The position numbers and the translations under genes were made by a program. From positions 1,024,001 to 1,088,000 of the forward strand of contig CBDCFN010000016.1 in NCBI GenBank assembly GCA_965216315.1: a DNA stretch of 64,000 nucleotides, written 5' to 3'. The DNA is from a bacterium. Its GTDB lineage: Bacteria > UBA10199 > 2-02-FULL-50-16 > JAJFLM01. Below the pieces are notes generated by a model. The model was not told the DNA's origin. It searched no databases and worked only from the letters and a program-made list of their open reading frames with translations. Of this stretch, positions 15,598 to 29,935 are shown piece by piece (the first letter of the stretch is position 1; the number at the start of each line of letters is the position of its first letter).

Positions 15598-15669
15598 TCC
15601 GGGGTAGCTCAGCGGCAGAGTAGGTGGCTGTTAACCACTTGGTCGTGGGTTCGAATCCCACCCCCGGAG
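15598..15669 (+). tRNA. tRNA-Asn (GTT); CCA end not fully encoded
   Basis: TCCGGGG acceptor pairs with CCCCGGA; D arm GCTC/GAGT; anticodon arm GGTGG-CTGTTAA-CCACT; T arm GTGGG-TTCGAAT-CCCAC. Confidence 0.97.
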
Positions 15670-15870
15670 CATAAAAATCCGTTGGACCCTTCTGGGTCCG
15701 GCGGATTTTTTTTGTTTCGTGGTGGGTGAGACCCCCAACTGTGTTGGAAGGTTCGACGAGCGCTTCGCCGAAGGCGAAGACTTACGAAGTGCAATCGTCA
15801 TAAAGACGATTGCCTCCCTCCGAAGCGGGGAGTCCGCCAGCGGCGGACGAGCAAATCCCACCCCCGGAGC
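15649..15870 (+). repeat. 222-bp unit U, copy 1: att core, terminator, stacked hairpins, second att core
   Basis: Identical by eye to 29632-29853; AATCCCACCCCCGGAGC at both ends. Confidence 0.95.
15673..15713 (+). terminator. Rho-independent terminator after tRNA-Asn (copies at about 20148-20188 and 29656-29696)
   Basis: AAAAATCCGTTGGACCC-TTCT-GGGTCCGGCGGA followed by T8. Confidence 0.85.
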
Positions 15871-16990
15871 AAATTATCCCCTCTAAGTCATTGTACTTGG
15901 AGGGGATTTTTTTAGGTCGTGACAAGTGGTCACCATTTGGTCGCCACATGGGCTGAACTGTTGCGTGTGACTCCGAAATAAATTCCTGACCGACGTTCAC
16001 GCCTCGATTGACCTTCTCGCGCCACTCACTCATCTGCTCAGGAATCATGTGCGTGTAGTGATCGGTAATGCCGCTGGTCTTTTGTCCGACCCATTCCATT
16101 AGTGTCTTCTTGTCGACACCGGCTTTTAGCATACGCGAAATGTACGTGTGCCGCAGCTGATGCAGGGTCCGTTCAAACTTGTGATCGGACTTGAAGGTAT
16201 ACCATTGATGTTCAAAGGCCTTACGGGTCCCGCTCAAAATGGATTCGCAGGGAATTGTCGGAATCAGTTCCATGATAACGTCGGGCAGCGGGACCACGCG
16301 GGCCCGATAGGTCTTGGTTGTTGCGCCCTCGACAGACTTGATCCGAACTACGCCCAGGCGCAGGTCAAAATCAGATTTTTTGAGCTGCGCTAGCTCGCCC
16401 ATCCGCATCCCCGTGTTGTAAAGCACAAGGCAGACACGTTTCACCTCTTCCTGCGCGTTGCGCATCACGAAGCGGAACTCTTCGTCCGTCCACGGAACTT
16501 GCTGGATCTTTGGTGTGTTGCGCGGCTTCTCGACGCCCTCAACGGGATTTTCAAAGGCAAAGCCATTGTCGATGGCCTTTTTGAACATGGTATTGAGGAT
16601 GCCTAAGTCATTGCGTACCGTCTTGGCCGAACGACCCAAAGCGCGCCGGTGGTTTCTAAAAGCGACCACATCCGCGCGGTCAATGTTGCAGACCAGCATG
16701 TCCTTGAAGAAAGAGACAAAGTTGGAACGGATCCGATAACAGGAACTACGCAGATAGCGCTCGGATTTTTCGCGGAAGTGATTCTCAATGAAAAGCTCAG
16801 CGTAGTCAGCGAAGGGAATCGGCTCGACGCTCTCCATGCCGGCGCGGCGGCGCCCCAGGTAGTCTTCCTTGAGCCGCAGAAACTCCTTGGCGTTCTGACG
16901 GTCCTTGAACGACTGCGTGTACCTAACGCCAGCCTCGCGCCAGTCGACGACCCAGCGCTTGCGATTTTTGCGATACCGAATCACGGCCAT
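15782..16990 (-). CDS. Tyrosine recombinase/integrase; ORF reads through the att core
   Basis: Arm-binding-like N-terminus, SAM-like core, TGMRMGE, LHQLRH, DHYTH catalytic motifs. Confidence 0.93.
   Translation of the reverse strand: MAVIRYRKNRKRWVVDWREAGVRYTQSFKDRQNAKEFLRLKEDYLGRRRAGMESVEPIPFADYAELFIENHFREKSERYLRSSCYRIRSNFVSFFKDMLVCNIDRADVVAFRNHRRALGRSAKTVRNDLGILNTMFKKAIDNGFAFENPVEGVEKPRNTPKIQQVPWTDEEFRFVMRNAQEEVKRVCLVLYNTGMRMGELAQLKKSDFDLRLGVVRIKSVEGATTKTYRARVVPLPDVIMELIPTIPCESILSGTRKAFEHQWYTFKSDHKFERTLHQLRHTYISRMLKAGVDKKTLMEWVGQKTSGITDHYTHMIPEQMSEWREKVNRGVNVGQEFISESHATVQPMWRPNGDHLSRPKKIPSKYNDLEGIICSGGGICSSAAGGLPASEGGNRLYDDCTS
15876..15913 (+). terminator. Element-supplied terminator just inside the left end of E1
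   Basis: ATCCCCTCTAAGT-CATTGT-ACTTGGAGGGGAT followed by T run. Confidence 0.7.
15926..15946. promoter_or_regulatory. Putative integrase arm-type binding site pair (also 19952-19972 and 29460-29480)
   Basis: GTGGTCACCATTTGGTC(A/G)CCA seen three times, each near an att core. Confidence 0.7.
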
Positions 16991-17174
16991 GTTGTCTGTA
17001 CCTCTCGATGTCTCTTATGACCTCGCTGACCTTAAAGAGCCAGCGCCGGCCCGCCTTATAGCCGGTGATGATGCCCTGGGCGGCCCAGCGATAGAGCGTG
17101 TCCTTGGGAACCGGCACGACTTGGAAGGCTACCAGCTGGTCCAGGGTCACGAACTTTTCCGGTTCTCGATTCAT
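16923..17174 (-). CDS. Excisionase-like HTH protein (recombination directionality factor)
   Basis: TLYRWAAQGIITGYKAGRRWLF HTH_17/Xis-like signature; immediately upstream of int. Confidence 0.8.
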   Translation of the reverse strand: MNREPEKFVTLDQLVAFQVVPVPKDTLYRWAAQGIITGYKAGRRWLFKVSEVIRDIERYRQHGRDSVSQKSQALGRRLARGWR

Positions 17175-17377
17175 TAACTTTATTCTCGCTCTGAGGCAAC
17201 TAGGCCCTGAGAATAGAGTTGCATGCGGTGTGCCAGGAAGGCCTAAAAAATTCTTTAAGAATATTATGGGGATAGAAATGACATCACTTTAGGGTGGTGG
17301 TAAAGTTACCAGTAGTTACCGGTAACTTTTATTGAAGTTACCACATTAATATGGCGGTTATGAGCAGATGCCAGTGA

Positions 17378-17878
17378 TCAGTCGAAATTAGCCAAGACAA
17401 CGTGCACCCTTACGCCTTCATGCGATACAGTATGTACCTCCTTTTCCTTAATTTTTGCGTCTGGTGGTAACCTAGAATCAAATTTCGTGATATCCGGACC
17501 TATCAAAAAAAACATATTTGTATTGTCGGATATCCTGACGTGCTCAAATATTCGTGTATCTGCAATCTGGGGTGAATATTCTTCCATAAAATCTGGGCTA
17601 GTAAAACGAGCCCCTCGTGTTTCTACAGATACGTAATTCTTGATGTCTCTTATAGGGGTTTTAGCCCGCTTCCTCTTCTCATTAAACCTATGTGTATTTG
17701 TCTGATCGTAGATATGGGTCACCCAATGGTATCGTCCATCCCTGTGATAACTGGTGTGATGCTCGCCACCTTCTATAGGTGTCCGGAAATATACACCGTT
17801 AACTGCAATTCTTATGATGAGCGGCCGATACGTTTTGCCGTCGATCTCATAAAAAAATGAAAATACATTCTTTGCCAT
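17378..17878 (-). CDS. Hypothetical protein (AT-rich cargo of E1)
   Basis: 166-aa ORF with AGGGG RBS; no recognised motif. Confidence 0.65.
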   Translation of the reverse strand: MAKNVFSFFYEIDGKTYRPLIIRIAVNGVYFRTPIEGGEHHTSYHRDGRYHWVTHIYDQTNTHRFNEKRKRAKTPIRDIKNYVSVETRGARFTSPDFMEEYSPQIADTRIFEHVRISDNTNMFFLIGPDITKFDSRLPPDAKIKEKEVHTVSHEGVRVHVVLANFD

Positions 17879-18208
17879 ACCATAGCCCCTCGACTTAATC
17901 GACCGTTTGCAATCTCATTCCGGCCATGAACTTCTTATCCCCGGCGCCATTTCTCATCTTTCTTCATGCCCGACCCCCCAACCACTTATAATCTCTATAT
18001 TTATGATTTATATTTCTACCAATATCACCATCACTCTCCCGCAATAGTACCCCCCAGCACCCGCAGTGTCTCCTGACCCCAGCATCTTGTACTACCGGAA
18101 GGTACGTAGAGAGGGTGGGGTCAGAAGTGTCCGGCGCTAAGCCGGACAAGCGAAGGGTGTGATATGATGGCGCTATTTCAGTTACCTAGTTGTCCGGTTA
18201 CTTTCCGG

Positions 18209-18338
18209 TCACCGGAAAGTTTACCGGACAGTTTAGTAGGGGTACCCGGTCTTAAATCATCACCGGACACTTATATATTTTTGTGACAATGAGACGCATT
18301 CACCCTCGTATCGTGTCCTTAACCGCATCGGATAAGAA
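18209..18338. repeat. About 130-bp internal repeat shared with E2 (27568-27698)
   Basis: TCACCGGAAA.TTTACCGGACA.TTTAGTAGGGGTA.CCGGTCTTAAATCATCACCGG(G)ACACTTATATATTTTTGTGACAATGAGA in both. Confidence 0.9.
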
Positions 18339-18475
18339 CGGATCTGAAGACGGAGGGAGCTCAGTCAGCACCTCATGAGCGCTTCAACTCTCAAAATAGC
18401 ATAATAATATTAAATAGTTATAAAATATAGGGACACGAATCATCCTGTGTTCTTGCATAATCGTCTCTTTTTTTC

Positions 18476-18518
18476 TATTGTCTACTAAATAGTAGACGAT
18501 ATATATTAGTAGACAATA
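18476..18518. promoter_or_regulatory. Perfect 13-bp inverted repeat operator ahead of the TA operon
   Basis: TATTGTCTACTAA ... TTAGTAGACAATA, with a third half-site between them, ending just before the ATG at 18521. Confidence 0.75.
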
Positions 18519-18520
18519 AT

Positions 18521-19222
18521 ATGCCCAAGACCGAGACAATCAATCCCTTCAAGGGGAACGCCGAGCTGGTCATCCGTGCTCTTTTTGCCGGACCGGATCA
18601 GAGCAGCAGTGGCCGCGATTTGGCACGTCACCTTGACCTTAGCCAGGCCTGGGTCAATCGTGTGCTTACCGCCTTGGAATCAAGCCGCTTAGTCCAGCGC
18701 AATACCCAAGGCCCGTCCAGCGAGACGAAACTCATCAAGCCCGCAAAGCTGCTCCATCGCTGGACGCTCGAATACCGGATCGACCTCAATCCCTATCACT
18801 TGTATTTAGATAGGCATGAGGATCCACTCACCCACCTTCGTGAACTCGCGGAGCAAGAAGGCTTTCGCTACGCCTTGACTGGATATGCGGCGGCCAACCT
18901 GATCAAAAAGATCATCCATGGAGACTTTCCCCCGATGCTGTATCTGTGGCCGAATAAAGGAAGTAAAGTTGCCTTCGAGGACATGCTCTTAAAACTAGAG
19001 AACGTTCATCAACTCGTGCCGGTCAAGAAGCACGCCAATCTTATCATCCTGCAGCCGCTGCAAAAAGACCGGGTTTTCTTCGGTGCTAAGGAACACGAAG
19101 GTTACGTCACCGTTTCTCCGCTCCAATTATTCCTGGATCTTTACGCCTTGGACCGCGGTGCCTTTGTCATCAAGGAGTTGAAGGACTATTGGGAAGAGCA
19201 CGGAATTCCCTATGAGCTATAA
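18521..19222 (+). CDS. Type IV TA antitoxin-like (wHTH + AbiEi-like C-terminal domain)
   Basis: N-terminal HTH (SGRDLARHLDLSQAWVNRVL), YALTGYAAA, VSPLQLFLDL; coupled to a nucleotidyltransferase gene. Confidence 0.75.
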   Translation: MPKTETINPFKGNAELVIRALFAGPDQSSSGRDLARHLDLSQAWVNRVLTALESSRLVQRNTQGPSSETKLIKPAKLLHRWTLEYRIDLNPYHLYLDRHEDPLTHLRELAEQEGFRYALTGYAAANLIKKIIHGDFPPMLYLWPNKGSKVAFEDMLLKLENVHQLVPVKKHANLIILQPLQKDRVFFGAKEHEGYVTVSPLQLFLDLYALDRGAFVIKELKDYWEEHGIPYEL

Positions 19223-19946
19223 GTATCCATTTCTCGATGTACTGGCCGACGCCCAGGAGGCCACTGGCGATCTTGTCTTAGTGGGCGGCTGGGCCCCGAC
19301 GGTCTACTTTGAATATTTGTGGGCCGGCCCACCACCATTGCTCAAAACAGGAGACATTGATTTTGGCATTCATCAGGCCATGCGAGTCAAGAAGCCCCTC
19401 CCGAATGTGTTTGATGGATCTCGATACAAAGAAAAGCACGAAGAGATCGGCAAGCTCACGCCTTATCAATTGATCTTTGGCGGTAAGATGAAACTTGATT
19501 TTATCTGCGATGAGGAAGATACCGCGTTTGCGCGCAAACAAATTCTCGAGAATAAAATCGTCCTCAGCGAATTCCCATCCTATCGCTTTCTCTTGAAGGA
19601 TTACTGTACGGTTGATTGTGACGGCATCGCCGTTAATGTGCCGCAGCCGGCCCGTTATATCGCCCATAAGATATGGGTCTACTTCGATGAACCAGAAGAG
19701 CGCGCCCAGGATATCACCGCGGCCTATTACTGCCTGACGCGTTCTCCACGCTCGGATGACATCTATCAGGAGATTCGCGCAATAAAAGACGAGACTGTCG
19801 TCACGACGATGTCAGCGAGATTAGCTGACCAGAAACTAACGAAAGATGCCCCTGTGATCATCGCTGTCGAATCCGGCCTGCGAGACATCGGCGATGAAGA
19901 AAGCCGCTCCGTGATCCATCGCAAGCTGAAACAACTTGTTGAGTGA
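19212..19946 (+). CDS. Nucleotidyltransferase (AbiEii/GSU2403-like) putative toxin
   Basis: LVGGWA...TGDIDF pol-beta NTase motif; AHK and RAQD motifs; overlaps the upstream gene. Confidence 0.75.
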   Translation: MSYKYPFLDVLADAQEATGDLVLVGGWAPTVYFEYLWAGPPPLLKTGDIDFGIHQAMRVKKPLPNVFDGSRYKEKHEEIGKLTPYQLIFGGKMKLDFICDEEDTAFARKQILENKIVLSEFPSYRFLLKDYCTVDCDGIAVNVPQPARYIAHKIWVYFDEPEERAQDITAAYYCLTRSPRSDDIYQEIRAIKDETVVTTMSARLADQKLTKDAPVIIAVESGLRDIGDEESRSVIHRKLKQLVE

Positions 19947-19951
19947 TTTAT

Positions 19952-20145
19952 GTGGTCACCATTTGGTCACCATCGCGATCCAGTAGCTCCGAACAAGACA
20001 CAATTATCCACAGCTATGAAAGCAACTTAACTCCGCCATCGGTATTTCTTTTTCAGCTTAGTGCCTGATTTTTGGGCGCGAGACGGCGATTCACGTAAGT
20101 CCTTGATTTCGCGTTCCCGCTCTTTTCGAATCCCACCCCCGGAGC
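19952..20145. repeat. 194-bp right arm of E1, homologous to 29460-29653
   Basis: Same length without indels from arm site to att core; both contain an IHF-like AATCAAGGACTTA on the minus strand. Confidence 0.9.
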
Positions 20146-20230
20146 ATAAAAATCCGCTGGCCCCTTTTGGGTCCGGCGGATTTTTTTTGTTTTGTGGTGG
20201 GATTTGAACCCTCTGCCGCAGGCAGCTAGA

Positions 20231-21307
20231 CTAGAGGCCCATTCTGCCATCAGGTGCAAAGGGTTTCTCTAGGTGTAAGTTCGAAAAGACTGTTTCTCTT
20301 GCTGATTCAAGAGTTTTTCCCAATGCATTTCCAACGATGTCTAACAACATTTGATCATGATGTAATCCAGTATTAATATGGTAACACCGATACAAATACC
20401 CAAAACCTAATCCTGGGATAAGATTCGCTTCAAGAAAATATGGAACTCCCTTTTCATCCATTTTAATGTCAATTCTTCCATATCCTCTGGCGCCTAAGGC
20501 CTTAAAAGAATCAATTGCGAGTTGTGATACAATATCTTTAATATGTTCATCTTCAATTTTTAACGTTAGTTCCATATCAGCAATTTTATCATCAAAGCCT
20601 AATATTCTGTCACCTTTCGCATTTGCTTGAGCCTGAAGTTCAATTGGGTAAACTTGGTAGGTCTCGTTTTGAAAGTCTTCCATAATTGCAACAGTATATT
20701 CTTTTCCACATAAATATTTTTCAACTAATGACCCTGTATTTTGATGGTCGAATATCGATTTTACTTTGCTTTCATACTCTAGATAATTGTGCACTAGTGA
20801 ATTAGAGTCTATCCCTCGTGAGTCTCCTTCAAAAATTGGTTTAATAAATAGCGGGTAGGATAGGTGGATATTATCTTCAGTAAGCTCATCGGGCTTTGTG
20901 ATAAAAAAAGTGGCCGTATTCAATCCACAACTCTTAATCTTTTCTTTAGCTTTGCTTTTATCAAATTCGAGTTCAATAGATTCTCTACTTGATCCCGTAT
21001 AGGCAATATTGTGTTTGTCTAAATATTCTGAAAACCAAAGTTTATTTGTAGCATATCTTTTTACGGTGTTCTCATCGAAACCCAAATATTTGATTCCTGA
21101 AATTACTAAATCAGGCTTGTGGCTTACCAACTCTTCTAAATCATCCATATTATGGATAATCGATACTCTCACTTTAGTATAATATTTGCTTAATGTTTCA
21201 TGAAGATTAAGTGACACTTTACTTGGCATTAGATTCAAACCCCCAATGGGAGTTGTGACTATTTCAATATAGTTTTCAATTTTCATTAATTTAACTTCAC
21301 CTAACAT
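20231..21307 (-). CDS. D-Ala-D-Ala ligase-like ATP-grasp protein
   Basis: YTGS...DKSKAK, PLFIKP, EKYLCGKEYTV, GYGRIDI, FLEANLIPG; AT-rich; start may be the second Met. Confidence 0.8.
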   Translation of the reverse strand: MLGEVKLMKIENYIEIVTTPIGGLNLMPSKVSLNLHETLSKYYTKVRVSIIHNMDDLEELVSHKPDLVISGIKYLGFDENTVKRYATNKLWFSEYLDKHNIAYTGSSRESIELEFDKSKAKEKIKSCGLNTATFFITKPDELTEDNIHLSYPLFIKPIFEGDSRGIDSNSLVHNYLEYESKVKSIFDHQNTGSLVEKYLCGKEYTVAIMEDFQNETYQVYPIELQAQANAKGDRILGFDDKIADMELTLKIEDEHIKDIVSQLAIDSFKALGARGYGRIDIKMDEKGVPYFLEANLIPGLGFGYLYRCYHINTGLHHDQMLLDIVGNALGKTLESARETVFSNLHLEKPFAPDGRMGL

Positions 21308-21828
21308 TCACATTTAATTATCAAGGCAAATTGAATAAGATTCTCGGGAAGCGAGTCTTGACAAGAGTCGTGATAATGAGCCGTCACCCTATCACTAAAG
21401 AGTCAATATAACTAATTCATAATGGATTATTCTCTGTTCAGGGACGGCTCCATGAGACTAATGAGAGGTAATTATGGAGTATTTTGCTATTTAGCAGGGC
21501 CTAATTACTTGCGCCTAAAGACACAGGCCAACAAAACCTTCAGACGAAGGACCCAACATGAAACCCTACGGTCCTAAAATGCGACCCTTCTGCGTCCAGC
21601 AAGCGGCGAAAACCTAGTTTTTTCACCAAACTCATCTTGGCATGATCCTTGCTTGGTAATGCCTCATGGCATCGCAACCACGCTTCGCGATTCTCGAGTA
21701 GTTTCTCGAGTAGTTTTAAGACGGAGGAACCCAAAAGCCAAATAATTTCAGGTCCGTAGAATTCAACTTACAGAATCACATGTCATTTTGGGCCCTTCGT
21801 CTTAAGTTTTTTATTGTGCCCTATATAG

Positions 21829-22986
21829 TTAAGCCATTCTGCTTGTATATTGTTTTATCAAACCAATCCAAGCTGGACTGATGAGAAGAGTCGCAAAAAT
21901 TGTTGCTATGGTTGTTTGGTAAGCAAATTCGTTAATAATATTTGTCTGTAACCCAATTGCTGCCAAGACAAAACTGAATTCTCCAATTTGAGAAAGAAGT
22001 GCTCCAGCATACAGAGAATCCTTCACAGTTACTCTCAGTGATTTTAAAATGCCCGCATTAATAAATGTATTGGTTAGTAAACTAGCTAGCATGAGGGTGA
22101 GCACAATAAACCAGTTGTTAGCTAAAAATTGGAGGTCAACCGTCATCCCTATGGAAACAAAAAAAAGAGCAACGAATATGCCTCGAAATGATTCTAAGCT
22201 CTGCTGTATCGAATGTGTCTCCTTTGCTACTGAGACAATAATGCCTGCCAAAAAAGCACCTAAGGCGGCTGAAAGTCCAAACAGTCCAGTAATGAAAGCC
22301 ATTCCTAATCCTAAGAATAGGGCTATTAATGTTTGAATCTCTTGATATCGCTTTATATATTTAGAAAATGGAAGGGGAATATTTTTTTTCACAAGAAGCC
22401 ATATAAGTAGAGCCAAAATGAGTAGCGCCCCCATAATTTGTAGAGTAATATTGGTAACATTAAGCTGCCCCCCCCCCATTAAATTAATTGCAATGAGCAT
22501 GGGAATAAGCAGAAAATCTTGCACTAAAAGAATGCCTATTACATTTTGTCCTACAAAAGAGTTGGTCTCATTTCGATCCTTCAGCATTGTAATGATGACA
22601 GCCGTACTGCTAAGGCTAATCACAAAGCCAAGAAAAATAATTTGTGACATCGGCCAAGATAACCAAAAGCCCAGAGCCCATACACAGACGATGCTAATAA
22701 CTACTTGAAGGACTGTGCCTGCAATCATGATGCGCCAATTTTTGACCAAGCTGGGTAGAGAAATCTCAGCTCCTACAAAAAAGAGTAAAAATAATACACC
22801 GAAGGCACCAATACGATTAAGTAGCTCTGTATCTGTAACAAATTCGAGAACATAAGGGCCGAGCACAACTCCTGCAACCATATAGGCAACTACAAACGGT
22901 TGATTGAGTCTCTTCATTAGAAGCGCAATCACAATAACGACTAATACCGATGCGGCAAGGAGTGGAATACTAGGGTCCATGTCCAT
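21829..22986 (-). CDS. CPA2 cation:proton antiporter (KefC-like, no TrkA domain)
   Basis: GVVLGP, SLSSTA, LLVQD, GAFLAG, LSQIGEFSF. Confidence 0.9.
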   Translation of the reverse strand: MDMDPSIPLLAASVLVVIVIALLMKRLNQPFVVAYMVAGVVLGPYVLEFVTDTELLNRIGAFGVLFLLFFVGAEISLPSLVKNWRIMIAGTVLQVVISIVCVWALGFWLSWPMSQIIFLGFVISLSSTAVIITMLKDRNETNSFVGQNVIGILLVQDFLLIPMLIAINLMGGGQLNVTNITLQIMGALLILALLIWLLVKKNIPLPFSKYIKRYQEIQTLIALFLGLGMAFITGLFGLSAALGAFLAGIIVSVAKETHSIQQSLESFRGIFVALFFVSIGMTVDLQFLANNWFIVLTLMLASLLTNTFINAGILKSLRVTVKDSLYAGALLSQIGEFSFVLAAIGLQTNIINEFAYQTTIATIFATLLISPAWIGLIKQYTSRMA

Positions 22987-23016
22987 AAATTATTCCTCTT
23001 TTATCTACTAATGGTC

Positions 23017-23598
23017 TTATTTGGATAAGCCGGCCGTCAACGCCCAGCGCAATGCATCCTTGGTCTTCATATCGACGGGTTGTATCTTCGATTTTGGCAC
23101 GTAAACGGTAAAGCCCCCCACTTGATAACTCCATGGCAGAAACACAGCCACCGTATCATCATGGTTTATCCCGTGCGGTGCGTCGCTTAAATCATGTCGG
23201 GTGACAACACCTAAGAAGCGGGTAGAGGCATCACCAATGGTTACCATAACGACAATCATATTATCGGATTGTTGTTTACCGCTTACGTATTGCACGACTT
23301 GTTTGAGGGCCCCATAGATCTCATTGACCAGTGGAATTTTCTCTACAAGGTACTCCGACCATCCCCAAAGTTTTCGCACGAACCATGCTTTCAGTAGCAA
23401 ACCAACAAGAAAGATCAGACCCAGGCCGAGAATGACACCCATACCGGGATGATACCAGCCGGTGGGGAGGAGCCAGCGCAGCGCAGCCTGGAATATGGAT
23501 TCAAGCCCTCGCATCAACCATACGAAAAGATAAATGGTAATAGCCAGTGGCAGGACCGCCAACAGGCCTTTCAGGAATATTGAATAAATCGATTTCAT
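23017..23598 (-). CDS. DUF502 family membrane protein
   Basis: FLKGLLAVLPLAITIY, KIPLV..IY, VAVFLPWSYQVGGF, ALTAG. Confidence 0.88.
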   Translation of the reverse strand: MKSIYSIFLKGLLAVLPLAITIYLFVWLMRGLESIFQAALRWLLPTGWYHPGMGVILGLGLIFLVGLLLKAWFVRKLWGWSEYLVEKIPLVNEIYGALKQVVQYVSGKQQSDNMIVVMVTIGDASTRFLGVVTRHDLSDAPHGINHDDTVAVFLPWSYQVGGFTVYVPKSKIQPVDMKTKDALRWALTAGLSK

Positions 23599-24044
23599 GA
23601 AGCATTCTCCAAAATAAATATTTCAATGAGCCTTTCGCTTGATTTCTGGTATTTGCATTTACTATACGATTTTGGCAAGATTTTATAGAAACTATGTCTC
23701 TCACAACCCCGCACAAAACTCTCAGTAAAGCACTGCATCTCCATCATCTGAGAAACCCGTATAGTCCCTTCAACATTCAAAAACGGATCCGCCTTGGCAA
23801 TCTCAACAGCCGCCTCAATGCTGTCCGCTTTAACAACGGCAAACCCTTTCATCGCATTAGGATCATTCTCGTCTTGAACATCACTTGAAGTCACAATTTT
23901 TGTGCTCATCAAAGGGGTTCCTGGATTGACGACCTGGTCGCCAAGACCTTCTGCCCAAGCTTTCCATTGACCCATCTGGGCCATGCCCTCTTCTTTTGAA
24001 CTCGGCTGCCTTCCGCCGTAATAGGCGATCATAAAATTGGCCAT
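23595..24044 (-). CDS. YCII-related protein (possible read-through extension at the C-terminus)
   Basis: AGGAG RBS before MANFMIAYYGG; WKAWAEGLGD, GFAVVKADSIEAAVEIAKADPFL. Confidence 0.75.
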   Translation of the reverse strand: MANFMIAYYGGRQPSSKEEGMAQMGQWKAWAEGLGDQVVNPGTPLMSTKIVTSSDVQDENDPNAMKGFAVVKADSIEAAVEIAKADPFLNVEGTIRVSQMMEMQCFTESFVRGCERHSFYKILPKSYSKCKYQKSSERLIEIFILENAS

Positions 24045-24271
24045 ACTGTTTCTCCTTGTGATGAGGATTATGCAGACGGGGGACAAAAAACACAGCAACT
24101 TTCTGTAAAATGGGTCGATAAGTGTATAATGCTTGTACTTCGAGCAGGCCGCCTGTATGGACGGGCCGGTATTAACGTTAGAATCATTTCCCAAGCGCTT
24201 TTTTAGAGTGTCCCTTCTGTAGTTTTCGGTCCACCCCAAAAATAAACTCTTGTGAAAACAAAGGGACACAC

Positions 24272-25537
24272 ATGACAAAACTCTCATTTGCCGAGCTCAA
24301 GCTCGCTAAGCCCATCGCGCGGGCTTTAGCCGCGAACAATTATGAACACCCCACGCCGATTCAGGCCAAGGCGATTCCGCCCTTACTCAAGGGCGGCGAT
24401 CTGATTGGCTGTGCTCAAACCGGGACGGGAAAAACCGCGGCCTTTGCACTCCCGATTTTACAGAAACTGTTGCTGAAACCATCCAAGGTTCCCGCCCGGA
24501 AGGCGCGGGTTCTGGTGTTGACACCGACGCGGGAATTGGCCGCCCAGGTGGGGGCCAGTTTTGAGCGTTACGGGCGCTATCTTCAATTGAAACAGGCCCT
24601 CGTCTTTGGCGGCGTGGGTCAGACGCCACAGGTTCGGACGCTGAAGCGGGGTGTGGACATCCTGGTGGCGACGCCGGGCCGTCTCCTGGATTTGATGAAT
24701 CAGGGACATCTTTCATTGAGCCATGTGGATACCTTTGTCTTGGATGAAGCCGACCGCATGCTCGACATGGGCTTTCTCCCAGATATCAAGAAGATCATTG
24801 CCAGTTTGCCGCGCCAGCGCCAGACCTTGCTCTTTTCCGCCACGATGGCGCCGGAGATTCTTAAACTGGCCCACGGCATCCTGATCGATCCCATAAAGGT
24901 GGAGGTCTCACCGCCCGCGTCGACGCCCCATCGCATTGATGAACGGGTCTTGTTCGTGGATGATGGGAATAAACGGGCCTTACTCACGGAGATTCTTAAG
25001 TCGCCAGAGGTGGAGCGTACTTTGGTGTTTACTCGGACCAAGCACGGTGCCAATCGTTTGGTCACGCAATTGGAGAAAAAAGCGGTGAAGGCCCGCGCCA
25101 TTCACGGCAATAAATCGCAGAGCGCGCGGATGGCGGCCTTAAAGGATTTCCGTCAAGGCCGTTGCCAAGTCCTGGTCGCCACGGATATTGCGGCCCGGGG
25201 CATCGACGTCGCCGGAATCAGCCATGTGATCAATTATGACCTACCCAATGACCCGGAAAGCTATGTCCATCGCATCGGCCGTACGGCCCGCTCGGGTGCC
25301 GCCGGGATCGCGCTCTCTTTTTGTGGGGCCGGTGAGCGGCTCTATTTACGGGACATTGAGCGACTCCTGGAGCGTTCCGTGCCGATCGACAAAGATCATC
25401 CCTATTACTCGGTAAGCGCTGCCGCTGTGGGGCACTCGCGTCGTTCCACAAGCCGGGTTGGCAAGTCAGGAAATGGCCCGGCCCGACAGCGGAGACGTCG
25501 CTACAACAAGAATTCAGCGCGGGCACGGACTCCATAA
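24272..25537 (+). CDS. DEAD-box RNA helicase (RhlE-like)
   Basis: Q motif PTPIQ, AQTGTGKT, PTRELA, LDEADRM, SAT, HRIGRTAR; basic tail. Confidence 0.95.
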   Translation: MTKLSFAELKLAKPIARALAANNYEHPTPIQAKAIPPLLKGGDLIGCAQTGTGKTAAFALPILQKLLLKPSKVPARKARVLVLTPTRELAAQVGASFERYGRYLQLKQALVFGGVGQTPQVRTLKRGVDILVATPGRLLDLMNQGHLSLSHVDTFVLDEADRMLDMGFLPDIKKIIASLPRQRQTLLFSATMAPEILKLAHGILIDPIKVEVSPPASTPHRIDERVLFVDDGNKRALLTEILKSPEVERTLVFTRTKHGANRLVTQLEKKAVKARAIHGNKSQSARMAALKDFRQGRCQVLVATDIAARGIDVAGISHVINYDLPNDPESYVHRIGRTARSGAAGIALSFCGAGERLYLRDIERLLERSVPIDKDHPYYSVSAAAVGHSRRSTSRVGKSGNGPARQRRRRYNKNSARARTP

Positions 25538-25704
25538 GTTTTATTGCTTAACGCATGACAGCTCTGGTCAGGAGTCAACCCCATGGTATTGCTCGTCAAT
25601 AGGCTATATCCGCGATCATATTGAGTCCGTCCCTTTAAGTTCATAAATCGCTTTATATCTATAACTGATTATTAATGTTATCCTGAACTGAAGGGAAATA
25701 TGAA

Positions 25705-26202
25705 ATGACAAAATACTTTTTGACATTGTGCCCCTCTGGTCTGCTTGGCCTGGCTATCGGAGTCGAAGCCTCAAATGCATGGCGCTATCGTGAGTGGGCA
25801 GATCGGTTCCGTCCTTTTAATGTAGGGGTGAGTGCACTTTTTGATGAGATGGCGGACGATGACGACAAACATGGTGATGATTTGCGCACGTTACATGGTG
25901 GGCAGTTCGGCAGCCTGATTGGGCTGGCAGATTCCGGGGAGATTGACACACATACTGAGGACGCAAAAGATGTGGAGGACCATTTCTTTGTAATCGATAA
26001 TGCGATGGCCCACAGCATCCTGATGGCTGCGTTCCACACATTGTCCAAGGCGCGTCATCTCTATCAAACGCTCCGGATAAGGACCAAGAGTACGGTGCTA
26101 CGTAAGGTGTACGAACCGCGGACTTTATCTGATGGAGGACACGTCCGAAGATTAAAGATGTTCCTGCAACAATTTCAACCGCTTCAACAACAAAACGCAT
26201 GA
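25705..26202 (+). CDS. Ferritin-like/rubrerythrin-like protein, probably degenerate
   Basis: LAIGVE..Y..WA..F..LFDEMADDDDKH resembles the ExxH diiron helix with substituted ligands. Confidence 0.55.
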   Translation: MTKYFLTLCPSGLLGLAIGVEASNAWRYREWADRFRPFNVGVSALFDEMADDDDKHGDDLRTLHGGQFGSLIGLADSGEIDTHTEDAKDVEDHFFVIDNAMAHSILMAAFHTLSKARHLYQTLRIRTKSTVLRKVYEPRTLSDGGHVRRLKMFLQQFQPLQQQNA

Positions 26203-26256
26203 GCTGCGTCATCAGCTCACGGAACTCTGTAACCGTGGCAAGTGCCGGCTGATTTT

Positions 26257-27457
26257 TCAGGCAGCAGGTGTACCGGACGGGCGCGAAAAGCCACTCACAA
26301 GAGTACTGGGCACGGAGAGTTTGGCGAAGCGCTTCACTGTGCCTTGCAGTGTTTGCCCCCAATGGCCTCGTTGATAACGAACACCGTAACGTTCGCAAAT
26401 CGCCTGAACCTTGGGCTGAATTTCACGCAGTCGATTTGGCGGCAGTTTCGGAAACAGGTGGTGTTCAATCTGTGTGTCCAAAGCACCGCACAGGATACTG
26501 ATGGGGAGAGGCACGTCATAATTATGCGCCGCCTCGACTTGGGCCTTATACCATTCTCCCCGGCCTTGGGTTTTAAAACCCTTGTCATAATAGTTCAGGT
26601 CATCTCCGAAATGCCCGCCATAAATGGTCGCTGTTGAATAAATGTTCCGCATCATATCCGCAGTCAGATTGCCCACGAAGACCTTCCACCACATCGGACC
26701 TGCCAAGGCCGGCCAGAACACAAAGTTGTAGGCCGAGTAAGGGATCATTTTTCTTGAGGGTTGTTTGGAGGGCGCGAGCCAGCGTTTTGGGTTTTCGGTC
26801 TGGCAATATCTTGGCGTAGGAAGCGTTGTCACCGGAATGGAACAAGTCGGTTAGTCCCGTGGCATAGGTAGCAATAATCCAGAGAAAGGCCGGGGCCGTC
26901 CAAAACAACTGCGCCACCTGGAGCAAGTGATAGGGAATCCATGAAATATGGGGGGAGGCCCGCAAAATACCGTAACTCAGATCCGGATCCCTTCCCACGA
27001 TGTTGGTATACTGATGGTGCAGGATGTTGTGCTCTCTTCTCCAACTCGCTTCGTCGACGGGGGTCTTCCATTTAAAGGAAGCCGAATAAAAGAGTTCGGC
27101 ACCGGCCAATCCGTCCCAGCAGCCATGCAATGCAGAATGACCGATTTCGGCGGTGTGCAGTTGATTATGGATGAAGAGGGCAAAGACACCCGCCGACCAC
27201 GTGAAAGGGTCCAGACTGACATGGATCAACAAACGGCCTGCGATCTCAGAGAGCCGAGCGACCCGCTCGACTTTCTTAATGTACGTAACATCGCGAGGGC
27301 CCAGTTTGGACTGGATGTCCTCGTGAAGGGCATCCAGTTCGGCCGCGAAGGCGCTATATTTTTCCCGGTTCCATGAAGAACGGGCCGTTAGTGTCGACCG
27401 ATGAGGCCGGGGCTTACTTCGAAACGAGCTCCGGCGCGATGCTGTCTGCCGCGGCAT
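26257..27457 (-). pseudogene. Membrane fatty acyl-CoA desaturase (DesA3-like) split by a frameshift
   Basis: His boxes EIGHSALHG and HNILHH lie in ORF 26600-27457, QIEHHLFP in ORF 26257-26832; removing one base of the T5 run at 26748-26752 joins the frames (LKK-MIPYS). Confidence 0.85.
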
Positions 27458-27659
27458 AACAAATTCCTCAACGACGTAATATACTCCTGGGGCAAGTTTC
27501 TGTCAGCAAGATATCAAGAGGGTGGGGATGCTCCATCACTTCCTATTTCCAATAGCTTAATCCCCCTTCACCGGAAACTTTACCGGACACTTTAGTAGGG
27601 GTATCCGGTCTTAAATCATCACCGGGACACTTATATATTTTTGTGACAATGAGATGCAT

Positions 27660-29186
27660 TCATTCTCTCATCACGTCCGTAATCGCATCGGATAAGAATT
27701 TCGCAAACGGCTCAATATCCTGCCCCACGCTTGCAGCCTCCAAGGCTTCCATGTAAGTGTCTCGATCGTCGACCTTGATAACCGTCCAGGGATAGCCGCC
27801 TGCTGCCAACATCACATTCATTAAGAAACGTGCCATGCGCCCATTACCGTCCATGTAGGGGTGGATATAAACAAAGACAAAGTGTCCCAGCACCACGCGC
27901 ACAAATGGGTCTGTCTCTTCACGGAGCAATTCGAAAAATGCTGGCATACTATCCCGCATAGCTTCTTTGTTAGGGGGCACGTGCTTCGACCGACGAATAT
28001 AGACCTGATCGTTGCGGTAACCAGCGAGCTCAGCGGGCTTTAAAATACCTGCGGTGACACTTGGTCCAAACATCTCGCGATACCAAGTCCCGTGATCCTC
28101 ATCGGCAACTTGACCCGGATTTGCACCTTTCAAGACACGACGGACACTTTCCTTGACGCTTTGAAAAGCCTGCCAGTAGCCACGAGCGGCCAGGGCGTTG
28201 CGTTGCTCGCGATCTTCCTCGCTTTTGTCGGGATGCCAGGTGCCGCTGCGAACCTTCTCGATCAACTCGGGACTGACTCGATAACCTTCAATGGAAAGCG
28301 AGTGATAGGCATCCGTCACATAGGCCTCTTCGACGCGTTCTATATACGAATCAATATCAGGCGCTGTTTTTGACGAAGAGGGCGCAAATTTGCGGATAGG
28401 CTCCCGCATCGCTTGCCACATTAAGCGGATGCGATTGACATAGGGTGATCTTTCTCGAAGCGGTTCGAACCGCGTTTTCTCTCCGAAAGGATCTGTTTCT
28501 CGCATATCATAATCGGCGGCACGCATGGTATTAATGATGTCATCGGCAATGCGCCCGCGTCCGACATTGCGGAAGGCTCCCGCCAGGCGGCTTGCAATTC
28601 TACTGTGACCGCCTTCCAAGAGACGATCCAAGACCTGAGAGGCATCCTGAATCATCGCGAGCGCGGCGCGTGCGTCGGTCGGATACTGTGTGAAGAAGCG
28701 ATGGGAACACGCAACGAGGGCCGCCGCTAAGGTGTAAAGACGCAGGTCCATTTTTCCTTCAATGTCCTGAGCCTCGGGCAGTGCGGAACGGGTGTCGAGT
28801 AGCGACGTGTGATGCGGCAGCTGGGTCACTTTGTTGCGGCCCTTCGTGGAACGGACAATCAGCTGGCGTGGAACCGTGAAGTTGCCGACATGAAGCAAGA
28901 GGGACTGGTCAGGGGATAGACACCAGTCCGTGTCGAAACGATCTTTCAGGTAGGTGGTGCAAAATTTCCAGAAGGAGGCAAACCAGGCGGTGCTCTCGCC
29001 GGGCGCCTCGTCCGGGCGTGTCGGAATGTACCAGCCCTTGATGACCCGCTGCAGGTAGCCATTCTTAAACAGGCGCTCCTGGTGCGTGCGGCTCAATTCA
29101 CTGCTGCGAATGACGATATGACCCTGATCTTGCAGTGCCTTCAGTTCGTCCAGGGATTCAGCCAGTTTTTCTGCCGGCGTTGCCAT
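27660..29186 (-). CDS. Fic family protein with long N-terminal extension
   Basis: HPYMDGNGRMAR Fic motif; YHSLSIEGY inhibitory-type motif. Confidence 0.93.
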   Translation of the reverse strand: MATPAEKLAESLDELKALQDQGHIVIRSSELSRTHQERLFKNGYLQRVIKGWYIPTRPDEAPGESTAWFASFWKFCTTYLKDRFDTDWCLSPDQSLLLHVGNFTVPRQLIVRSTKGRNKVTQLPHHTSLLDTRSALPEAQDIEGKMDLRLYTLAAALVACSHRFFTQYPTDARAALAMIQDASQVLDRLLEGGHSRIASRLAGAFRNVGRGRIADDIINTMRAADYDMRETDPFGEKTRFEPLRERSPYVNRIRLMWQAMREPIRKFAPSSSKTAPDIDSYIERVEEAYVTDAYHSLSIEGYRVSPELIEKVRSGTWHPDKSEEDREQRNALAARGYWQAFQSVKESVRRVLKGANPGQVADEDHGTWYREMFGPSVTAGILKPAELAGYRNDQVYIRRSKHVPPNKEAMRDSMPAFFELLREETDPFVRVVLGHFVFVYIHPYMDGNGRMARFLMNVMLAAGGYPWTVIKVDDRDTYMEALEAASVGQDIEPFAKFLSDAITDVMRE

Positions 29187-29210
29187 CTAGGGGCCTCTCC
29201 AATTCCGTTC

Positions 29211-29300
29211 TATTTATAGCTTATTTGGCTGTGTGAATAATAGCTTATTCTGTTGTGCTATTTATAGCTTATTTTGCTGTACTGAAAAGCGCTTATTATG
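29211..29300. promoter_or_regulatory. Four direct repeats with a 24-bp period upstream of fic
   Basis: GCTTATT at 29219, 29243, 29267 and 29291 (ATAGCTTATT in the first three). Confidence 0.7.
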
Positions 29301-29631
29301 TCGAGCAAAATGGCGCTTTTCACGGATATGCTTGATATTATAGTATTTTCAATAAGTTATATGGAAATCTTAGTGCTGGTTTGTAACAAAAATAGATTAG
29401 TTTTTGTTACAAAAAATAAAGCCTTTACTTCGGTGCTGGGCTGAAATCACACCCCCGAAGTGGTCACCATTTGGTCACCATCGCGTGCAAGTGACTACGA
29501 ACAACACCGAACTATCCACAAGACTGAAAGTGCCTTAACTCCGCCAGCGATAATTCTTTTTCGGCTTAGCGCCTGATTTTTGGGCAGCAGACGGCGACTC
29601 GCGTAAGTCCTTGATTTTAGGTTCCCGCTTT

Positions 29632-29853
29632 GTTCGAATCCCACCCCCGGAGCATAAAAATCCGTTGGACCCTTCTGGGTCCGGCGGATTTTTTTTGTTT
29701 CGTGGTGGGTGAGACCCCCAACTGTGTTGGAAGGTTCGACGAGCGCTTCGCCGAAGGCGAAGACTTACGAAGTGCAATCGTCATAAAGACGATTGCCTCC
29801 CTCCGAAGCGGGGAGTCCGCCAGCGGCGGACGAGCAAATCCCACCCCCGGAGC
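29632..29853 (+). repeat. 222-bp unit U, copy 2; its last att core is followed by a complete CCA
   Basis: Identical to 15649-15870; ends CCCCGGAGCCA at 29855. Confidence 0.95.
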
Positions 29854-29935
29854 CATGCACCGTACGGTGCATGGCGGAGCCCCATGCACCGCATGGTGCA
29901 TGGGAGCCCTCTGCACCGCATGGTGCAGGGGAGCC
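29849..29935. repeat. Three tandem 27-bp palindromic units delimited by GGAGCC
   Basis: GGAGCC at 29849, 29876, 29903 and 29930; cores TGCACCGTACGGTGCA / TGCACCGCATGGTGCA. Confidence 0.85.

Follow-up and report, generated by a model that had tools for sequence, protein, structure and literature searches.

A tRNA-targeting island with the attachment core inside the end of its integrase gene, and a possible tail swap resembling that of phage Mx8

The bacterial cases in which integration is established to swap an integrase tail are mainly those of the myxophages Mx8 and Mx9. In Mx8, integration gives int a new 3' end and alters specificity without inactivating the enzyme, and Mx9 is similar (available portion of PMC6070905). 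By the title of a work in the reference list of PMC11610982, the Mx8 Int tail is not needed for excision. The archaeal SSV-type "suicidal" integrases also have att inside an ORF that lies antiparallel to a tRNA 3' end; they use many tRNA targets, tandem insertion has been proposed to build hybrid genes from them, and integration splits their gene into two inactive parts, with the catalytic Tyr in int(C) (excerpts of PMC7253208). Mx8 and SSV are named as the known exceptions in the accessible text of the Islander work (PMC4383910), where ordinary tRNA-targeting integrases of the lambda type are described with a 3' tRNA fragment as core, a T-loop or junction subsite, arm repeats, IHF-like boxes, and tandem islands. 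No other bacterial tyrosine integrase of this kind was found in the open literature beyond Mx8, Mx9, and the SSV type, a coverage outside which most subscription papers fall, and excerpts of PMC12884075, PMC5861418, and bioRxiv 10.1101/410191 contained nothing on this layout.

The integrase described here was found in a 64,000-nucleotide stretch of bacterial DNA, the whole of which is referred to as the window. The ORF 15782..16990 on the minus strand encodes a tyrosine integrase of 402 aa as found (Pfam Phage_integrase, PF00589, E 9e-17). In the homolog alignment R196, H277, R280, and Y312 are invariant and K226 nearly so, and the catalytic domain thus has the R-K-H-R-Y set typical of lambda-type enzymes. 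Likewise, residues 3-50 are predicted to fold into three strands and a helix, as in an N-terminal arm-binding domain, and arm-type repeats at 15928, 19954, and 29462, which would be its putative binding sites, flank the core. The start of int is overlapped by an excisionase-like HTH gene of 83 aa (16923..17174, minus strand; HTH_17 and Exc, with TIGR01764 just below cut-off). Comparison with a homologous locus (L089) gave pN/pS values of 0.10 for residues 1-315, 0.14 for residues 316-347, and 0.55 for residues 348-374 (p 0.21). Purifying selection is therefore strong as far as residue 347, and the real protein runs about 35 residues beyond the catalytic Tyr, with constraint fading after that point.

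An earlier, sequence-only reading had claimed that int has no stop before the att core. This is the case: the ORF crosses the 17-bp core at 15854-15870 (residues 374-380, 62 codons past Y312 in one ORF) and continues into a 200-bp trailing unit, U, as far as a stop at 15782-15784. The core corresponds to the 3' end of tRNA-Asn and is present in five exact copies, beginning at 15654, 15854, 20129, 29637, and 29837. The four C-terminal tails proposed in that reading all translate as it had stated, with matching stops. Specifically, int as found carries a 23-aa tail from U with a net charge of -2; joining of the core in the tRNA gives 393 aa, with a 14-aa tail read antisense to tRNA-Asn(GTT) and a stop at 15609-15611; and joining to right end A or B gives 412 aa, with a 33-aa tail of net charge +9 and stops at 20027-20029 or 29535-29537, respectively.

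The resemblance to Mx8 proposed in the same reading holds for the layout, in which the att core lies inside int, 3' of the catalytic Tyr. Mx8 Int (AF396866) has Y354 and antisense T-arm residues 416-420, 62-66 past the Tyr, to be compared with Y312 and a core at 374-380 here. In both systems the excisionase gene overlaps the start of int and the catalytic domain stays intact in both states. On the other hand, about 113 residues follow the core in Mx8 but 19-33 disordered basic residues do so here. Identity is only 24% over 219 residues, in the N-terminal half, and the profile match ends before the tail. On the core profile of the clade to which our integrase belongs Mx8 scores 45 bits, compared with more than 200 for members, and it sits on a long branch outside that clade. 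Membership in the Mx8 Int sequence family is ruled out by this remote kinship and by the absence of a homologous long tail. Mx8 is a phage that contrasts with an island of 4-14 kb, in which no phage, replication, or transfer genes were found among the scanned ORFs of 15854-29637, and the clade here uses about eight targets. The best phage matches to Int were below 27% identity and carriage by a temperate phage was not found; viral contigs held only 24% relatives of Int and no match to the attR pattern. An SSV-type suicidal integrase is also ruled out, as Y312 precedes the core by those 62 codons in the same ORF as the gene start: unlike the split SSV gene, int here keeps its catalytic domain whole within a single ORF, the tail being the only part that changes. 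The island shares the attachment-site features of ordinary lambda-type island integrases but differs from them in its read-through, since their ORFs stop before the core (0/19 read in).

The order of the locus is tRNA-Asn, U, attL arm, int, excisionase-like gene, cargo, right end A (core 3), cargo B, right end B (core 4), and a second U. The target gene, tRNA-Asn(GTT) (15598..15670, plus strand), has core 1 as its 3' end, with the T-loop at 15650-15656 and the 17-bp block at 15654-15670. The attL arm (15871..15946) lies within the int ORF and comprises a replacement terminator hairpin (15876-15907), whose loop contains a partial IHF-like box (15884-15894), as well as arm-type repeats (15928-15946); two 8-bp repeats of this arm recur at both right ends. 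Right end A (19954..20146) has arm repeats at 19954-19972, an IHF-consensus box at 20096-20108, and core 3 at 20125-20146, with tRNA identity from the T-loop, while right end B (29462..29654) has them at 29462-29480, 29604-29616, and 29632-29654 (core 4). The 33-aa tails are encoded on the minus strand at 20027-20128 (A) and 29535-29636 (B), stops included. The boxes at the attL arm and the right ends are presumably IHF sites, going by the consensus for that protein, and consensus and position together suggest that the attL-arm elements act as IHF and arm sites.

The cargo of element A includes a 166-aa ORF of no known family (17378..17878, minus strand; no Pfam, NCBIfam, or PADLOC match) and an AbiEi-like regulator with a nucleotidyltransferase (18521..19946, plus strand), a type IV TA-like pair (AbiEi_2 below cut-off; NTP_transf_8 E 5e-11). 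Segment B (20231..29186), without an integrase gene, carries genes for a D-Ala-D-Ala-ligase-like protein, a Na/H exchanger, DUF502 and YCII proteins, a DEAD helicase, a split desaturase, and a Fic protein. The fatty-acid desaturase is divided over two overlapping ORFs (26257-27457), each corresponding to one half of PF00487, and is apparently frameshifted. Three to four 24-nt repeats lie upstream of the Fic gene (29207-29302) and are also found in contig C3, and three 27-nt palindromic repeats directly follow core 5 (29847-29929). A non-coding block at 17921..18340 is conserved in sibling elements A, B (in part, 27557-27698), C3, L089, and a tRNA-Gly element, and is possibly a cis site for mobilization in trans. 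Conserved blocks of this kind, rich in ACCGG and GGTAAC repeats (17289-17344, 17921-18340, 27557-27698, L003 2388-2697, L004 5146-5872, and L089), recur in several islands that have neither a rep nor a relaxase gene and represent a candidate cis site for helper mobilization. Promoter and terminator counts were at the level of shuffled sequence.

A third sibling is located on contig C3 of the same genome (L003, G000:C3:1-6395). Its integrase, 93% identical, is truncated by the start of the contig. It also has a Fic gene like that of segment B and a third attR cut just before the core, and it is unplaced in the assembly; it could be a strain variant, an extra tandem unit, or a circle. The tRNA-Gly island (L004, G000:C16:1480359-1492000) has a DEAD helicase, a desaturase, and the non-coding block in common with segment B. 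Its integrase is distant (25%) and the ORF stops 26 nt short of tRNA-Gly.

U copy 1 (15671..15870, plus strand) consists of the tRNA terminator (15673-15710), a spacer rich in hairpins that includes an interrupted copy of the T-arm, and core 2 (15854-15871), and supplies the present 23-aa tail (15782-15853, minus strand). An identical copy 2 (29654..29853, plus strand) ends in core 5 and is likely the original tRNA-trailing copy, displaced by integration. Judged from sequence comparison, U does not belong to the island. One of its homologs follows tRNA-Ser(GCT) and another stands alone (L007), both ending in the same interrupted T-arm, and a similar tRNA-Asn-trailing unit in genome G038 has no integrase within 1.5 kb. 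No Rfam family matched U. Hairpin units of about 180-230 bp that trail tRNA genes and end in a second tRNA 3' copy with an interrupted T-arm (both copies of U; L006, L007; L211 in G038; L198/L204 in G066) have very stable folds (z -8.2) and no Rfam match, and look like a repeat family of this class. In this genome, trailing units of other kinds are found behind two tRNA-Ala genes.

In cores 3 and 4 the match to the tRNA begins at the T-loop, an extension that cores 2 and 5 lack; its absence from core 2 had been missed by the earlier reading. The tRNA identity of an attR in genome G002 and of a tmRNA-associated locus (L200) also begins at the T-loop, and this shared starting point indicates a T-loop crossover. 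According to the portion of the Islander work consulted (PMC4383910), a T-loop subsite is not easily distinguished from a junction subsite. If the crossover does occur in the T-loop, excision takes U along and Int remains at 402 aa; 412 aa would result only from a crossover within the 17-bp block. The simplest history would be integration at the tRNA, followed by one unequal exchange between the end of U and attL that duplicated U. The U tail of this window is likely an accident that may disable the tail swap here. The several alternative tails that had been proposed are not supported as a design. The two 33-aa tails and that of C3 are allelic versions of a single tail, carried by sibling elements, and designed tail diversity is ruled out on that account. 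The tail ends have no common motif, by which a reading of the tails as degrons is also ruled out.

An assembler that duplicated or misplaced U could have produced the read-through artificially, and the two copies of U are indeed 100% identical over 222 nt, with the 93% sibling left unplaced on C3. We consider such an artefact extremely improbable, given that independent contigs cover both the tRNA-U-int region and the region downstream of U, and that read-through is independent of U, as in L089. Specifically, one X4 contig spans 14500-16188 without differences, one X3 contig covers 15365-15870, and one X1 contig covers 29635-31000 (runs X1-X4 are from one study and may include the source sample), and the tRNA-U-int junction is therefore not misassembled. 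No attP or excision joint was present among the 15 listed of 19 joints in contigs of these four runs (one study, at most two samples). Contig depth in X1 and X2 was lower within the island than on its flanks, a value that is not a copy number.

Both tail forms that do not depend on U occur naturally, and each keeps a complete catalytic domain. The integrated form is represented by P0002 (88% identity, 393 aa), which ends in the predicted tRNA tail and whose DNA locus, L089, has int running straight into tRNA-Asn without U, and by P0005 (61%), which has the same ending. Genome G001 yielded no attR for the L089 element. The attP-type form is represented, as a protein sequence only, by P0003 (56% identical, 412 aa), which has a 33-aa tail after the core and a WRS end, matching the attP-type tails of this window in both length and ending, and could derive from a circle or a tandem array. 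Its tail is identical to tail B at 11/33 positions without gaps (counted by eye), and a search with its residues 300-412 returned only P0003 itself plus two already known proteins. In L200 the reading frame of a related integrase crosses a tmRNA core and continues into a right arm of foreign origin, which constitutes a natural tandem attP-type junction. Other arrangements were also seen among relatives. An attR at L181 1360-1520 (G002:C136) has arm repeats and an IHF box as in this element but differs in its tRNA core, and its middle segment is much shorter; a matching integrase was not found in the 80%-complete genome G002. The ORFs of the related or distant integrases P0028, P0045, and P0063 apparently read into tRNA in the sense direction. 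A second island, at L174 7263-11713 (G045:C16), interrupts tRNA-Leu at its anticodon, carries a 5' fragment, and lies back to back with the read-through integrase.

To survey read-through in DNA, 101 distinct integrase ORFs in the fetched loci were scored with a profile cut at residue 325, and those scoring above 200 were assigned to the clade (8 loci). All four clade loci that face a tRNA called within 450 nt read into it, compared with 0/8 open control frames. Among the other four, the ORF of L175 runs to the contig end at a tmRNA core, that of L200 reads through the core, and those of L197 and L198 end ahead of the core, which they face as a sense fragment. The 93 distant ORFs included 19 with a tRNA within 450 nt, none of which reads in (0/12 at 230 nt or less), and two of the distant ORFs stop 4 nt short of a tRNA. 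The difference between 4/4 and 0/12 has a Fisher p of 5e-4, which the kinship of the lineages overstates. Shuffled arm DNA stays open in 2-21% of cases per lineage, with a product of 7e-7 over six lineages (L197 and L198 left out) that kinship likewise overstates. The 27-codon arm of this window is open in 20% of shuffles, and both of its other frames are closed across the arm. Altogether 7/7 Int frames and 1/14 control frames are open. Close loci were rare in the broader scans (1 among 80 returned from metagenomes and 1 among 80 from genomes), and the remainder served as controls.

Homologs that stop soon after the catalytic Tyr would have weakened the sequence-only reading, and the 25 close proteins extend a median of 76 aa beyond it, versus 37-38 aa for the 128 distant ones. 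Tails derived from tRNA were detected in 15/25 close and 8/128 distant proteins (153 proteins with a locatable Tyr; match score at least 34, against a null 95th percentile of 33 and maximum of 38), in a comparison whose close bin is not fully independent of a profile built from top hits. In a quick tree of 49 core domains, picked from top hits with fragments left out and labeled by eye from the tails, a 12-row subclade including this Int (SH-aLRT 97) reaches a tRNA or tmRNA core in 12/12 cases. About eight targets are used by the subclade (Asn, Gln, and Leu observed in DNA; CAT-anticodon, Ser, Val, Phe, and tmRNA deduced from peptide), with two reading frames at the core and changes of frame inside the subclade. 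Its sister groups mix read-through with early stops, such as those of P0009 and P0169 at 41-43 aa after the Tyr. We conclude that the read-through layout is a conserved trait of a new clade of tyrosine integrases.

Selection on the tail peptide itself was less evident. At right ends A, B, and C3 the Int frame is kept to one stop with a pN/pS of 0.44 (p 0.049), and the other frames gave 0.81 and 1.08 for A versus B. A separate pair from G045 gave 0.48 (p 0.08), with another frame at 0.51 and stops three codons apart. Over six right ends the Int-frame tails extend 19-32 codons after the core codon, longer than the other frames (p 0.012), and they are richer in K/R in 6/6 cases. The third-position excess in tails fell short of significance (5/7/11, p 0.11). 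Conservation of the tail DNA does not exceed that of the arm DNA following the stop (26% vs 31% variable columns; 65% vs 79% identity in G045), and AlphaFold gave pLDDT below 50 from residue 340 onward for both the U form and P0003, so that the tail is predicted to be disordered. The conserved tail words are translations of DNA sites, IKDL of the IHF-like box, RPNGD of the arm repeats, and KKIP..EG of the terminator stem. The tails of distant clade members (19-33 aa) have no sequence in common but the IHF word, along with a basic make-up. The spacing from T-loop to IHF box is 16 nt in one core frame and 17 nt in the other and the box is thus read in the same register, an agreement between two classes only that has a one-in-three chance. 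The earlier reading had set against itself homologs that stop early together with a tail similarity explained by DNA-level conservation of arm sites alone; this combination holds by half, in that much of the similarity is translated DNA sites. As for the integration-dependent switch that it had put forward, the Mx8-like layout and the natural occurrence of both forms stand in its favor, but a function of the disordered tail peptide is weakly supported by pN/pS values of 0.44-0.48.

These observations are consistent with a small tRNA-targeting island whose joining site lies inside the last part of its own integrase gene. Int would recombine at the T-loop with the help of IHF and arm sites, and the overlapping excisionase would set the direction. 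The free circle would express an Int with the basic 33-residue tail, whose flexible, K/R-rich chain could add a DNA contact and favor integration, and the inserted copy an Int with the short tail read from the tRNA, an exchange that probably tunes activity. A crossover within the 17-bp block would have placed a duplicate of U between tRNA and attL, creating the accidental 23-aa tail and possibly uncoupling the swap. That the tail swap is a working activity switch as in Mx8 is plausible, at somewhat short of an even chance. We hold more tentatively, as a rather doubtful proposition, that this clade, with a tail unrelated to that of Mx8, evolved its switch independently: a short disordered basic tail would be encoded over the attR IHF box, its register kept despite changes of target and frame (16 vs 17 nt), insertion would remove it, and tandem insertion would pass on the tail of the neighbor.

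Two other explanations have to be weighed against a functional peptide, and both appear unlikely, to a similar degree. Selection could act on translation across the att arm, with ribosomes passing over the terminator hairpin and core to control the ending or stability of int mRNA, or an RNA antisense to the tRNA, in a way that depends on whether the element is inserted or free. Retroregulation by lambda sib offers a parallel for control of this type. The frame does stay open while the core reading frame and target change, the ORF crosses the strong hairpin at 15876-15907, and amino-acid constraint drops from 0.10-0.14 to 0.55 past residue 347 into a disordered tail; yet translation alone leaves unexplained the fixed 33-aa length and WRS end that P0003 has in common with the tails here, the synonymous skew, and the K/R excess over other frames. 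Alternatively, the stop may have been lost once in a gene whose enzyme tolerates whatever tail it receives, tail length and words being set by att geometry (core, IHF, and arm spacing). Conserved words that are DNA sites, DNA that is equally conserved past the stop, the apparent tolerance of the U tail and many different tRNA tails, and the existence of early-stopping relatives would all fit such a by-product, as would the attR in G002, whose arm and IHF box are the same but whose segment is much shorter. However, 27-46 unselected codons should gain stops over 25-60% protein identity, the open frames number 7/7 for Int against 1/14 for controls, and 0/19 distant integrases read in.

The layout has practical consequences, since annotation pipelines record tRNA-antisense tails as protein, and integrases mined from integrated copies of the clade carry the wrong C-terminus for attP x attB tools. 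The clade also provides a small, clean case for testing whether tails tune recombination or ride along: a single enzyme has four natural endings and is accompanied by an excisionase and short att sites. If the clade did evolve an attR-encoded tail switch independently, tail swapping would be a general and portable control of tyrosine integrases and not an oddity of Mx8.
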